From the NCBI GenBank assembly GCA_028701435.1, contig JAQVQT010000003.1:1-32286 (forward strand): a DNA stretch of 32,286 nucleotides, read 5' to 3'. How positions within the stretch are numbered: the first letter of the stretch is position 1; every line of letters starts with the position of its first letter. The translations under genes and the position numbers were made by a program. Below, piece after piece: positions 12,903-20,301 of this stretch. Below the pieces are notes generated by a model. The model did not search any database. It saw only the letters and a program-made list of their open reading frames with translations, and was not told where the DNA came from. This DNA is from Smithellaceae bacterium (GTDB taxonomy: Bacteria; Desulfobacterota; Syntrophia; Syntrophales; Smithellaceae).

Positions 12903-13017
12903 TGTGGATAAGCTTGTTTAAAACCTGTCGATACAACTGTGGAAATATTTTTCGGCCATTGACTTTATCAACAGCAAAAAAGATCCTGGAGACATCAGGG
13001 CTTAGCGCTTTTCCACA
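12903..13017. promoter_or_regulatory. cluster of four DnaA-box-like 9-mers next to an AT-rich tract
   Basis: TGTGGATAA 12903-12911 is the perfect complement of TTATCCACA. TGTGGAAAT 12938-12946 matches 7/9. TTATCAACA 12965-12973 matches 8/9. TTTTCCACA 13009-13017 matches 8/9. The very AT-rich stretch 12770-12830 lies just to the left. Function is unproven. Confidence 0.3.
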
Positions 13018-17742: not shown

Positions 17743-20301
17743 GTGAAGTCAGATGTCAGCGATATGCTCCGGAAGCTCATTCGGACACAGGAAATTACGG
17801 ATACCGAGGGAGAAGTCGTTTCCGAAGCGCCGGTGGAACTCACGACTCTGGGTGTTCCCCTGATCCGCAAAAGCAATAAACATTATGTAATCGATCTGAC
17901 GAATACCCGGGTTTTTCGAAACTTGCATACTTTTGTGCAAATGTTGACGGAAGAGGTGATTGAGCAGTGCGGATTCGGCATTGCCGATATTATGGTGCGG
18001 CGCAAGGTTGATCGCGGGTTGACTCCGGAGCTTTGCGCGATCGGGCTGGACTGGATTATGATCTATGTCCGGTTGGATGCCGCCGACAGCCTGCCTTTTG
18101 ACTATCGCAATTTCGGCAACTGCATGCAGGTGATTTTCCGCGCTTTGCAGACCGAAAAGTGGGGCGGCATTCTCTTTCCGGAATTCTTCGGGCTGAAAAA
18201 TCAGGAAAACGATCTGAACAATCCCCCCGCGCTCCTCTTTCCGTTTCATCTTCATGACCGGGAAGAAAAAAACGGCAATTATTTTCTGGTGGAATACAGC
18301 CGCCCCGGCCGTTTTCTGCGCATTACCATCGAGGATGCCGCCGGCTCCCGCCTGCAATTAAAGCGGATTCCCCATCGCGTTGTGGATCAACTGGTTCGCC
18401 CCTCCTATTTTGCGGATATTTATCCAACGGCTGAAAAGATTCATCAGGGAATGCTGCATGAGGCCATGAACCACCGTTCTGAATATCAGGAAGATATGAC
18501 CCGGCTCCCGGATTTTTTTGCCCATCTGCAACGCGAAGGGCTGCCTGATCTGCAAAAGATTCATTTTACCTGGCCGACGGATGACCGGCAGATGCTGTTT
18601 TTGGAAAATATTACCGCGGATGCGGCGACGGAATCCTTGATTATGCTCGTAAAAGAGATCCAGTTGCTGGATGATCCCCATGCGCTGAATTTATTATCCA
18701 AAGGTTATGTTGTTGAAATGATTGCCGGATCGTTTCATGTCTACTTTGATGTTTCCCGCTACGGCGCCTGCCTGAATGTGAGCTTTGATGAATTGCGTAC
18801 GGCTTTGACAATGGAGAATTACCTTTCGAGCATGCCCGCTTTGCAAGGCGCATGCGAAAAACGTCAGGGAGCGCTGCATCCGGTGCGGATTTTCCTGATC
18901 CATCATATTACCGCGGAAGTGATCGGCCTGATCCAGGCATTGGAAGGTGCGGGATGCGCGGCGGTCAGCACATTTTTTGTCCAATATTTGGGCGTTGTTC
19001 CGGAGTCTTATCTGGAAACACTGATGTCTGTGCCCCGGGAAAAATTCCAGTTTTACAGCCTGCAGAAAATTGAGACCCGCCAAAATCTGGTCGGTTTTTA
19101 TCAATTATCTCGTCAATTTACACCCCTGGCGGAGATGGAGGATATCAATAAGACGCTGCTGGCGGAAGACCTGAATTTTCTGGGGGCCATGCGTCTGGCT
19201 TCCGGACGCCTATTTTTGAAAGAAGTTGTGCTTGCCCGGCAAAATAAAGAACCGCTGCTCCTGGTGGAAGACGGCGGCTATCTGGCGCCGCTTCTCAATC
19301 GTTTTTGCCTGGAGATGAAAACCGTCGGCGAGGTTTTTGACTATTTTCATTTGTCTTTGCCCGACGGCGATGAAAAACTTTTTTTCAGCGACTGGCTTGC
19401 CGGGACTTTTCTGGGCAGCGTTGAACATACCCGAAACGGCTATGACTACAATAATGAAGTATATCAAGAATTTGGCAGGCTGCAGTTTCCCGCCGTCAGC
19501 ATTGCTCTGTCCAGACTCAAAAGAGGCCCGGAAGCCAAAGAATGCGCCCTGTCGATTCTCAATGCCACGGAAAATATTCTCAACCGGCTGGGGATGCTTT
19601 TTTCGAGGCGGACGATAACGCTTCTCGGATCGTCCGGAGCGATTGGGAATTTCCTAAAGCAGGAACTTCTCCATCGCGTCTCGGGCAGTCATCTTTTTGG
19701 CGTGGATATCGCCGCACCGGAAAATTCCAGTCAGAACATGACGGAAGTGAAAACGCTCGATGACCTGGGAAAAGACGCTATCATCCATACCGATATGTTC
19801 ATCGGCGTGGTCGGCCATTCGATCTTGCGGCAAAAGCATCTTGAAGAAATTATGCTGTACAGCCGGCATCGAAAAATATTCTTCATCAGCGGTTCGACCA
19901 AAACAGTGGAATTTGCCGACGTGCAGGATTATCTGCAATCCCTTCGCGACGCGGTAAGCCCTTGCGTCCGGGGACGGGCGGTGCAAGTGGAATTTAATGC
20001 CCTGCGTGATCTTCAAACCGGCATTCTGCAAGGCTATGAGGCTGCCATTTCCTTTCCCGAGGATCCGTCGAAAAACAAGATTATGTTTTTATTGGGCGAG
20101 CTGATGCCCATTAATTTTCTCTATTATGGCATTTCCCGCGAGATTGTGGACGAGGTTATGGCGCAGTTGTTTACGCTGTCCTGTGGTTTTGTGAGTCGGC
20201 AGCGCTCCGAAGATAAACTGCCATCCGCGCTTTTCGCGGTGGATTACGAAATCGACGGGGAAGCCGGGGCAATTTCTTTTGACGGTAAAAGCCGGACATA
20301 A
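17743..20301 (+). CDS. large hypothetical protein: N-terminal ~355 aa unassigned, C-terminal ~470 aa adenosylhomocysteinase-like with a dinucleotide-binding loop
   Basis: GTG start with GAAGGAGG 7 nt upstream; 852 aa. The block order MPALQ..RIFLIHHITAEVIGLIQAL, LLVEDGGYL, VEHTRNG, PAVSIALSRLK, LLGSSGAIGNF, TDMFIGVVG, IFFISGSTKTVEF, LLGELMPINF is colinear with SAHH blocks as I remember them. That it is a CDS is confident; its function is not. Confidence 0.6.
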   Translation: MKSDVSDMLRKLIRTQEITDTEGEVVSEAPVELTTLGVPLIRKSNKHYVIDLTNTRVFRNLHTFVQMLTEEVIEQCGFGIADIMVRRKVDRGLTPELCAIGLDWIMIYVRLDAADSLPFDYRNFGNCMQVIFRALQTEKWGGILFPEFFGLKNQENDLNNPPALLFPFHLHDREEKNGNYFLVEYSRPGRFLRITIEDAAGSRLQLKRIPHRVVDQLVRPSYFADIYPTAEKIHQGMLHEAMNHRSEYQEDMTRLPDFFAHLQREGLPDLQKIHFTWPTDDRQMLFLENITADAATESLIMLVKEIQLLDDPHALNLLSKGYVVEMIAGSFHVYFDVSRYGACLNVSFDELRTALTMENYLSSMPALQGACEKRQGALHPVRIFLIHHITAEVIGLIQALEGAGCAAVSTFFVQYLGVVPESYLETLMSVPREKFQFYSLQKIETRQNLVGFYQLSRQFTPLAEMEDINKTLLAEDLNFLGAMRLASGRLFLKEVVLARQNKEPLLLVEDGGYLAPLLNRFCLEMKTVGEVFDYFHLSLPDGDEKLFFSDWLAGTFLGSVEHTRNGYDYNNEVYQEFGRLQFPAVSIALSRLKRGPEAKECALSILNATENILNRLGMLFSRRTITLLGSSGAIGNFLKQELLHRVSGSHLFGVDIAAPENSSQNMTEVKTLDDLGKDAIIHTDMFIGVVGHSILRQKHLEEIMLYSRHRKIFFISGSTKTVEFADVQDYLQSLRDAVSPCVRGRAVQVEFNALRDLQTGILQGYEAAISFPEDPSKNKIMFLLGELMPINFLYYGISREIVDEVMAQLFTLSCGFVSRQRSEDKLPSALFAVDYEIDGEAGAISFDGKSRT

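Follow-up and report, generated by a model that had tools for sequence, protein, structure and literature searches.

A conserved operon for a HAMP sensor, a MinD/ParA-type ATPase, a zinc dehydrogenase and an SAHH-fold protein: a candidate signaling relay in Smithellaceae and other bacteria

Introduction

How does a membrane sensor without a classical output domain act on the enzymes encoded beside it? This question is raised by a gene cluster in a 32,286-nt stretch of a Smithellaceae bacterium (GenBank assembly GCA_028701435.1, contig JAQVQT010000003.1, positions 1 to 32,286), hereafter the window. Four plus-strand genes encode a MinD-like ATPase, a membrane protein with a HAMP domain (the sensor), a zinc-dependent dehydrogenase of the alcohol dehydrogenase type (ADH) and an 852-aa protein, here called BIG, that resembles S-adenosylhomocysteine hydrolase (SAHH). 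A divergent gene encodes a nucleotidyl cyclase with a putative helix-turn-helix (HTH). An earlier note, made from the sequence alone, had grouped all five genes into one module and could name no described system of this composition. The second statement holds, as none was matched in Pfam, NCBIfam, PADLOC or the full-text literature. The literature search, outside whose coverage many subscription papers lie, found no description of the module; the relevant items were a paper on S-component "transceptors" (Partipilo & Slotboom 2024, PMC11109136) and papers on DUF62. The parts come from known superfamilies, yet none qualifies as a member of the named family closest to it (SAHH, MinD, ParA, RibU or Tdh), and in our judgment the module falls outside all kinds of system described so far.

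The reading we favor, at a probability of about 0.4, is that the sensor signals through a conserved C-terminal tail to the ATPase, which would control BIG and the dehydrogenase as they act on an adenosyl-like compound.

A co-inherited operon with its own promoter

A database of 5.8 billion proteins contains about 130 full-length homologs of BIG, all labeled hypothetical and none with a Pfam domain; an identical protein comes from a Smithellaceae metagenome-assembled genome. Relatives were found in 205 matched stretches, all of them taken from species-representative genomes. Gene order was assessed by tblastn of the window proteins on 80 BIG loci (loci are numbered with the prefix L), 69 of which had enough upstream DNA. 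An automated filter recovered ATPase, sensor, (ADH) and BIG on the same strand and in this order in 45 of the 69; with L063, L074 and probably L069, which it missed, the count is about 48. Median gaps within the module are 14-44 nt. Carriers belong to Desulfobacterota, Verrucomicrobiota, Kiritimatiellia, Lentisphaerota, Sumerlaeota, Dependentiae, Elusimicrobiota, Bipolaricaulota and Cloacimonadota, and include an acidobacterium (Acidobacteriota). In a reciprocal metagenome scan, all full-length sensor orthologs (29/29) were flanked by ATPase and/or ADH/BIG genes where the contig extends. Tabulated in this way, the four plus-strand genes behave as a unit co-inherited across phyla, in agreement with that part of the original grouping. 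The dehydrogenase gene is present in about half of the informative genomes; 30 loci have it directly 5' of BIG, and 8 have it at another place in the locus.

The fifth gene does not belong to this unit. A cyclase gene adjoins the operon only in L081 and L082, contigs 97-99% identical to the window, and was not found next to it in about 100 other module loci, even in L001 at 80% BIG identity. The cyclase was therefore rejected as a conserved member of the module; three or four genes make up the conserved unit, next to which the cyclase is a neighbor at strain level.

All five open reading frames (ORFs) were recovered where they had first been placed (Table 1); shadow ORFs from the crude ORF caller (clusters c10, c24, c47 and c49) were disregarded. 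The close packing reported for the operon was likewise found, with an ATGA overlap of ATPase stop and sensor start (15685-15688), AAGGAG (16715-20) inside the 12-nt gap ahead of ATG 16726, and GAAGGAGG (17728-35) inside the 48-nt gap ahead of GTG 17743. A shared -35 region for the cyclase gene and the operon, also proposed from the sequence, is not supported: the operon has its own sigma-70-type promoter, and the minus-strand hexamers lie about 30 bp away. Eight other loci (L002, L003, L007, L010, L011, L016, L024 and L029), with otherwise unrelated flanks, keep both hexamers of this promoter and their spacing 5' of the ATPase ortholog. Positions 14811-20301 are a single operon with its own conserved promoter. 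Promoter-like sites are not commoner in the region (11) than in shuffled sequences (9.5 +/- 3.2), and the best minus-strand hexamers (TTAACA, 14782-77; AATTAT, 14760-55) are no better than chance.

A sigma-54 promoter was considered and rejected: an NtrC-type gene precedes the ATPase gene in L001, yet no -24/-12 element was visible by eye in 14780-14932. At 14840-14932, the operon's 5' leader measures about 93 nt, whereas several relatives that share the promoter have one of about 25 nt. Within the window leader, the 3' arm of an imperfect hairpin (14886-98 / 14913-25) extends to a weak ribosome-binding site. Rfam searches of the window and of 11 loci with energy-coupling factor (ECF) transporter genes returned no RNA family and thus gave no hint of a riboswitch.

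Table 1. Coordinates of the genes and sequence elements in the window
Feature	Position	Strand	Basis or remark
HTH-cyclase gene	13002-14633	-	ORF confirmed; 543 aa from ATG 14633
15-16-nt motif TTATACAGTCTAAAAA, three copies (two direct, one inverted)	14704-14777		Repeat search of the divergent intergenic region
Operon sigma-70-type promoter, TTGACT-17 nt-TATACT	14811-14839	+	Top score in promoter scan, 10/12
MinD-like ATPase gene	14933-15688	+	ORF confirmed
Sensor gene (ECF S-component fold, HAMP, C-terminal tail)	15685-16713	+	ORF confirmed
Sensor C-terminal tail, residues 289-342, ...REKKLQKQVEELQIKIDREKQIADVAEIVETEYFRSLKEKARKFRAS	16549-16710	+	Same tail ends other sensors beside the ATPase subfamily
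Zn-dehydrogenase gene, 322 aa	16726-17694	+	ORF confirmed
BIG gene, 852 aa	17743-20301	+	ORF confirmed
BIG N-terminal helix motif, residues ~3-16	17749-17790	+	Motif comparison among BIGs

A sensor that ends in a shared tail

The sensor starts with an ECF S-component-fold domain (residues ~20-175), which is followed by two more transmembrane helices, a HAMP domain (241-292), a coiled coil and the tail. The membrane domain matches PF07155 (ECF S-component, RibU-type; 35.9 bits versus a cut-off of 26.7, E 9.6e-9, residues 28-174), and the HAMP domain matches PF00672 (38.4 bits versus 25, E 1.5e-9). Against the RibU equivalog NF010182, the score is 35.5 versus 99 bits. Within the membrane domain, N23, R40, P41, Q42, W83 and N87 are invariant, together with a Gly/Pro pattern, and identity to the free 182-aa S-components of ECF operons reaches 31-37%. 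The AxxxA motif of S-components has been linked to ECF-module binding (PMC11109136). In our reading of the alignments, helix 1 of the sensor has no conserved AxxxA motif, and the operon contains no EcfT or EcfA gene. Another receptor, a family of 700-750 aa with an S-component-like membrane domain and HAMP, occurs in L111, L112, L116, L122, L123 and L137 (e.g., L116:5872-7980); its C-terminal region of about 400 aa has neither a family match nor the tail.

No kinase, MCP, GGDEF, cyclase or PP2C domain is present in the sensor, and the coiled coil and a 45-aa tail alone follow HAMP. The tail, with a consensus of about 45 aa (...L.I.ID..K....V.EI.ET.YF..L..KA..LR), also ends HAMP-GAF, cyclic nucleotide (cNMP)-binding, periplasmic-domain/HAMP and GAF-GAF proteins encoded beside the ATPase (L161, L166, L169 and L170). 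A hidden Markov model of the tail scores 63-85 bits on these unrelated sensors, and the tail always lies 10-32 aa from the stop codon. The view of the HAMP protein as one without enzymatic output thus needs amendment, as the conserved tail is its likely output. On the strength of these sequences, we propose that the tail may be a docking or output peptide for the ATPase.

The identification of the latter as a deviant-Walker-A, MinD-like protein is supported by Pfam, which places it in the P-loop MinD/ParA family (AAA_31, E 3e-19; ParA, E 2.4e-18). Its Walker A motif reads HSFRGGTGKSN (HSxRGGTGKSN in the subfamily), with an Arg, invariant in 39 orthologs, in place of the signature Lys; these orthologs also share the motifs DTDIQSPGIH, LNDxLWGKC, DTHPGLNEETL and RPDQQDYQGT. 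From our own alignment, we take the invariant RPDxQDYQGT to correspond to the helix-7 partner-binding region of MinD. Unusual invariant residues are C69, H8, H47, H136, H216 and H236, and neither CxxC nor CxC occurs in the sequence. Among solved structures, archaeal MinD-1 (1hyq, E 1e-13) is the nearest, with FleN also among the closest. The protein stays under the cut-offs for MinD (TIGR01968, 59.6 versus 212.9 bits; TIGR01969, 85.1 versus 201.75 bits) and ParA (NF041546, 52.7 versus 180 bits), and it matches the NUBPL/Mrp-type ParA model over its full length (66.9 bits). Neither minC/minE nor a ParB-like neighbor was found in the window or related loci. The subfamily is tight, with 62-67% identity across phyla and different gene contexts, and is more widely spread than BIG.

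Two samples were drawn through the ATPase or through the tail. Eight ATPase proteins at 62-67% identity gave nine loci, six of which have the tail. L164 and L171 are further BIG modules, and L170 encodes a GAF-GAF protein. L161, L166 and L169 have a class III cyclase within two genes, and two of these three also have a 250-aa cNMP-binding protein divergent from the ATPase. L162, L163 and L165 (two of which represent one identical protein) encode a membrane/HEAT/cNMP-binding protein of 1177-1197 aa downstream. In L162:1550-5143 and L165:6828-10361, it begins with a membrane region, continues with HEAT repeats and ends in a cNMP-binding domain, and the locus has no tail-bearing gene. The tail profile search returned 12 proteins, short and mostly partial; the word index favored short sequences. 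In two of the four contigs chosen through the tail, the very next gene encodes the ATPase (251/256 aa), with the full signature in L172 and known by Pfam families only in the second contig. Counted over the window and 172 loci, 78 encode both the ATPase and the tail and 76 encode neither, and 13 of the 18 discordant loci lie at a contig edge while 3 are of the HEAT/cNMP-binding type.

Class III cyclases, cNMP-binding proteins and GAF proteins recur by the ATPase subfamily in Anaerolineales and other contigs. Hence, the cAMP link suggested by the earlier note is lost from the conserved unit, which has no cyclase, and may persist through these ATPase neighbors. The cyclases near the ATPase elsewhere are of a 512-aa tandem type, 27% identical to the window cyclase over the catalytic domain.

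A sister operon was observed in L166:6001-10668 and L169:6001-11581. It encodes the ATPase (two paralogs in L169), a 444-448-aa membrane protein (MFS-type in L169, no Pfam match in L166), a tail-bearing periplasmic-domain/HAMP protein and a 448-452-aa protein with faint ATP-grasp similarity in L166. A tandem-domain class III cyclase lies directly upstream.

BIG has an SAHH fold and a novel N-terminal domain

BIG comprises the helix motif (residues ~3-16), a novel alpha/beta domain (~30-375) and an SAHH-fold NAD domain (~376-852). It has no match in Pfam or NCBIfam (E <= 0.01), PADLOC or PDB sequences, even with a family profile; ferritin and SDR matches were dismissed as chance or Rossmann-only. 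In an AlphaFold2 model built from 45 homologs (pLDDT 87, pTM 0.80), the C-terminal ~475 residues retrieve SAHH in all of the top 50 Foldseek PDB hits (E 6e-14 to 4e-12, TM to target 0.57-0.72). The label "SAHH-like" given earlier to the 852-aa protein is thus substantiated by fold, in the absence of any sequence-profile match.

Comparison was made with human SAHH, in a sequence one residue short of 1li4 and otherwise identical to it. The motifs follow the same order in BIG and SAHH (EDGGY/DDGGD, EHTRNG/EETTTG, K593/K186, GSSGAIG/GYGDVG and D655/E243), with a statistically weak alignment (hhalign E 0.025), so that residue pairing rests on motif order and fold. By motif position, we read H388/T390/E392 as SAHH H55/T57/E59, D510 as D131 and N791 as N346. 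In SAHH, H55/T57/E59 contact the 5'-OH and adenine N1/N6, and the catalytic set of the human enzyme is H55, D131, E156, K186, D190 and H301. Throughout the BIG family, GxxGxxG (629-635), D655 and N791 are invariant, the residues paired with those of SAHH are invariant or nearly so, and E597 is conserved with H388, D510 and K593. Judged by its model, BIG is SAHH-like in fold, but it is not an SAHH; it probably binds NAD and an adenosyl group in an SAHH-like manner.

The N-terminal 375 residues are modeled with a pLDDT of 88 and have no significant PDB fold match (best E 0.02, TM 0.09). HPPD/VOC-like matches were insignificant (TM 0.09), and a VOC fold is not claimed. A profile of this domain retrieves this family alone (108 clusters among 1.84 billion representatives). 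Its invariant D82, E184 and H211 could bind a metal.

BIGs with an ATPase start in the helix motif, for example, KSDVSDMLRKLIR, KKEIGSILNNLMHSSRF or KTIGKLLGKLKRN. In the model, the motif spans residues 5-21 and is helical at low confidence. Among complete cases, a loose regular expression finds it in 50 of 58 BIGs accompanied by the ATPase versus 0 of 20 without, and seven of the eight misses are shorter variants of the same motif. The BIGs that lack the motif include those of Leptospirales and of an acidobacterial/gemmatimonadal group, which have no ATPase or sensor. Together with the shared sensor tail, this ATPase-linked helix lends support to the "ParA-like signaling complex" that the earlier note had offered as one idea.

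The dehydrogenase, assigned an NAD(P)-type fold from the start, is a Zn-ADH with Pfam matches above cut-off to ADH_N (E 5.6e-20), Glu_dehyd_C and ADH_zinc_N. It reaches no equivalog, the best being Tdh (L-threonine 3-dehydrogenase; 114.1 versus 380 bits). The catalytic-zinc ligands C39, H58, E59 and E141 are invariant in 37 orthologs. In Leptospira, a divergent 495-aa version overlaps the start of BIG, and P0153 (1280 aa) is a naturally fused protein, Zn-dehydrogenase-like in its N-terminal half and followed by a complete BIG.

Gene neighborhoods of BIGs without ATPase have another composition. A STAS gene lies directly 5' of BIG in Leptospirales, where other flanking genes (PrmA, PBP, CheX and YhhN) are variable and were rejected as functional partners. 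The neighbors in Acidobacteriota and Gemmatimonadota are a HATPase_c_2 kinase, a dCache-HAMP-SpoIIE (PP2C) protein, STAS, an NCS2 nucleobase permease and ADH. In L062, L064, L065 and L066, the NCS2 xanthine/uracil-type permease by BIG has a cytoplasmic C-terminal extension of about 130 aa that has no family match.

Hints to the ligand

The closest free S-components sit in EcfAA'-S-EcfT operons, about 24 loci of which have a DUF62 gene 5'. NCBIfam names and published work on DUF62 assign this family as (R)-S-adenosylmethionine (SAM) hydrolase. The ECF operons (L113-L160, e.g., L115:3402-7366) encode a fused EcfA-A', a 182-aa RibU-like S-component and EcfT, and some have a threonine-synthase-like gene 5'. 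This arrangement suggests that the DUF62-ECF operons could encode an importer for SAM or a related adenosyl/methionine compound. In some lineages, BIG itself neighbors an NCS2 nucleobase permease, NUDIX or an MtaD/5'-deoxyadenosine-deaminase-like gene. Together with the adenine/ribose contacts kept in BIG, these neighbors indicate, and do not identify, an adenosyl- or ribosyl-type compound. The nucleoside-like substrate envisaged earlier is therefore plausible from the SAHH-type contacts, the DUF62-linked S-components and the nucleoside-type neighbors, and the cyclase/MerR control attached to it would be a local addition.

A proposed relay and its weak points

Gene order, conservation, folds, motifs and co-occurrence are the observations on which the favored relay builds; physical contacts, the direction of information flow and the chemistry are its conditional part. 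The S-component-fold domain would bind a small molecule at the membrane, probably of adenosyl or ribosyl type. HAMP and the coiled coil would relay the change and reposition the C-terminal tail, which would engage the ATPase dimer and set its ATP-bound state. Short partner peptides act on ATPase dimers in other ParA/MinD systems. The ATPase may then bind the N-terminal helix of BIG and recruit or switch the BIG/dehydrogenase pair. With tightly bound NAD, BIG would oxidize a ribose-like hydroxyl of an adenine-containing substrate in SAHH style, and the dehydrogenase would handle a carbonyl or alcohol of the same pathway. As transducer between sensor and enzyme, the ATPase would account for a sensor without a classical output domain.

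A wider generalization is tentative. Many sensor types sharing the ~45-aa tail could report to a dedicated MinD/ParA ATPase that switches or recruits effectors, with cAMP as one input. In such an unrecognized signaling route, the ATPase would play the part of kinases or second-messenger enzymes, and the effector in the window would be the SAHH-fold BIG with its Zn-dehydrogenase.

Several points weigh against the relay. Most loci were gathered via BIG or the sensor, so co-occurrence counts are inflated and the samples are not independent. The unbiased samples are small (eight ATPase proteins in nine loci, six with tail; four tail contigs, two with ATPase). Leptospirales and some Acidobacteriota have BIG but neither ATPase nor sensor, so that BIG has no strict need of them. 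The correlation between helix motif and ATPase comes from few independent clades and is therefore suggestive only. The link between S-component and SAM hydrolase is an analogy at about 35% identity. Finally, SAHH H301 is replaced in BIG by an invariant S718 and E156 by a nearly invariant H562; hence, another chemistry or mere ligand binding may apply.

Alternative explanations

Uptake coupled to catabolism is unlikely. The S-component-fold protein and the ATPase would form an ATP-driven importer, as ArsA energizes ArsB, with HAMP and tail as the coupling element replacing EcfT, and ADH and BIG would degrade or salvage a nucleoside-like cargo. In its favor, the membrane domain shares homology with genuine ECF S-components (PF07155 above cut-off), two redox enzymes come next in the operon, some MinD-less BIG loci have a nucleobase permease instead, and ADH-less variants (14 loci) encode a secreted Cupin_5 (DUF985) protein after BIG. 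HAMP, however, is a signaling module, and the same tail occurs on soluble cNMP-binding and GAF proteins that are incapable of transport. The missing EcfT/EcfA genes and the lack of a conserved AxxxA in helix 1 also speak against an importer.

A second alternative is the original five-gene arrangement, in which the HTH-cyclase would bind the intergenic repeats, make cAMP and control a nucleoside-transforming operon. The assignment "MerR-HTH-cyclase" is sound in its second half: a class III nucleotidyl cyclase domain is present (PF00211, 36.3 bits versus a cut-off of 21.9, E 5.5e-9). Its closest PDB relatives are the bacterial adenylate cyclases CyaB and CyaC, and inspection of the alignment to them shows both metal-binding Asp and the Lys, Asn and Arg positions in place. 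The N-terminal HTH, separated from this domain by a middle part without assignment, is only weakly MerR-like. It scores under the Pfam cut-off (MerR_1, PF13411; 18.0 versus 21.6 bits, E 0.003) with a sequence pattern compatible with MerR. Translation probably starts at ATG 14633 rather than TTG 14753; the TTG extension would cross the repeat-rich promoter region.

Between the divergent genes, TTATACAGTCTAAAAA occurs in direct copies at 14704-19 and 14738-53 and in an inverted copy at 14760-75 that is 100% complementary over 16 nt; a 15-nt palindrome spans 14739-53 / 14763-77. Outward-facing TATAAT hexamers lie in the repeat arms. As sequence elements, the repeats are a candidate operator and may serve the HTH domain of the cyclase.

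The divergent layout with its three-copy 16-nt motif, the catalytic residues of the cyclase and the recurrence of class III cyclases, cNMP-binding and GAF proteins beside the ATPase subfamily all fit a five-gene unit. The absence of a cyclase beside the operon in about 100 other module loci, with near-identical strains as the only exceptions, tells against it, as do the different architecture of the cyclases near the ATPase elsewhere, the subthreshold MerR score and the lack of any cNMP-binding domain detected by Pfam in the four operon proteins. We thus regard the five-gene unit as improbable and the cyclase as a local addition, which may supply cAMP input to the ATPase hub or control the operon via its HTH and the 16-nt repeats.

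Even less probable is that the ATPase matures BIG or the dehydrogenase as a chaperone inserting a cofactor or metal, as CooC, HypB, UreG or Mrp/NBP35 do, with the sensor unrelated. The full-length NUBPL/Mrp-type match, the invariant Cys and His residues of the ATPase and the possible metal site of the BIG N-domain (D82, E184, H211) would suit such a function. The ATPase has neither CxxC nor CxC, however; at 62-67% identity it is also encoded in operons that have very different partners and lack BIG and ADH, and BIG and ADH occur without the ATPase in Leptospirales.

An anti-phage defense or other conflict system, horizontally acquired and built of sensor, ATPase and NAD-binding effector, would suit the differing neighborhoods, the G+C of 0.43-0.54 across 13-21 kb versus 0.55-0.61 in the outer flanks and weak PADLOC matches to PycC and PDC-M28B, but it is highly improbable given that these matches reflect generic cyclase and Walker-A homology, that sensor, ADH and BIG match nothing, that the module lacks a nuclease, TIR, SIR2 or any other toxic effector, that the BIG pocket is SAHH-like catalytic rather than NADase-type, and that the neighbors are housekeeping genes.

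Genomic setting

The window is ordinary chromosome. The operon is surrounded by glycogen genes (7-10170), an EF-G gene (20560-22647), an acyl-CoA ligase gene and genes for a glycerol-3-phosphate dehydrogenase-like protein and glycerol kinase. A four-PAS HD-GYP protein (10606-12750), likely a c-di-GMP phosphodiesterase, is encoded convergently with the cyclase, which places two second-messenger genes side by side. After the EF-G gene, a 253-aa ORF (22686-23447) has no NCBIfam match. G+C is 0.43-0.56 over 10001-26000, with a minimum of 0.43-0.47 at the cyclase gene and intergenic region. The module lies in different genomic neighborhoods even among close relatives, and this feature, together with the low G+C, may reflect past horizontal moves.

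Significance and relation to known systems

If the relay is true, it adds a new wiring to bacterial signaling, from a conserved tail to a ParA/MinD-type ATPase, that would explain "output-less" HAMP, GAF and cNMP-binding proteins. BIG would stand for a new enzyme family, an SAHH fold joined to a domain without structural relative, present without annotation in about 200 species of the genome set; its substrate would probably be an adenosyl compound, in anaerobes where radical-SAM chemistry is abundant. The sensor would offer a testable case of an ECF S-component fold serving as receptor. Even if the relay fails, the operon is a well-defined, phylum-spanning unit, rare but widespread.

Among known systems, SAHH/AhcY shares with BIG the two-domain fold, the NAD motif and an acidic residue after beta-2, and the counterparts of H55, T57, E59, D131, K186 and N346 are conserved. 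BIG differs in having no match to the AdoHcyase models (PF05221/PF00670), S718/H562 for H301/E156, PxNFLYYG in place of the adenine-loop motif LVNLGCAxGHP, and 375 aa of novel N-terminal domain. Its gene accompanies those for ATPase, sensor and dehydrogenase, not methyl-cycle genes. AHCYL1/IRBIT, a non-catalytic SAHH-like regulator, likewise has an extra N-terminal region on an SAHH-like body. The initial purification of eukaryotic SAHH was as a protein that binds adenosine and cAMP; as a lead and by analogy, BIG could bind cAMP or adenosine and be the counterpart here of the cNMP-binding proteins in the sister operons.

The ATPase resembles the peptide-steered MinD/ParA ATPases (MinD-MinE/MinC, ParA-ParB, FlhG/FleN, ParC-ParP and McdA-McdB) in its P-loop with deviant Walker A, and its proposed partners also bear short conserved terminal peptides. 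In contrast to them, it has Arg for the signature Lys, scores far under the MinD and ParA cut-offs and has no minC/minE, parB or flagellar genes nearby. Its partners would be ligand sensors, through their C-terminal tails, and an enzyme, through its N-terminus.

S-component transceptors and 5TMR sensor kinases join a six-helix S-component-type membrane receptor to cytoplasmic signaling parts (PMC11109136), as does the sensor described here. The domain in the window matches RibU-type PF07155, not 5TMR-LYT, and is followed by two extra transmembrane helices, HAMP and the tail rather than by a kinase, GGDEF or MCP. The main text of that paper does not use the word HAMP.

Partner-switching modules (RsbU-type PP2C, RsbW-type kinase and STAS) form the last point of comparison, since genes of this kind adjoin the ATPase-less BIGs and suggest that BIG is under signaling control there as well. 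None of their parts is in the window, where the ATPase/tail route would provide an alternative input.

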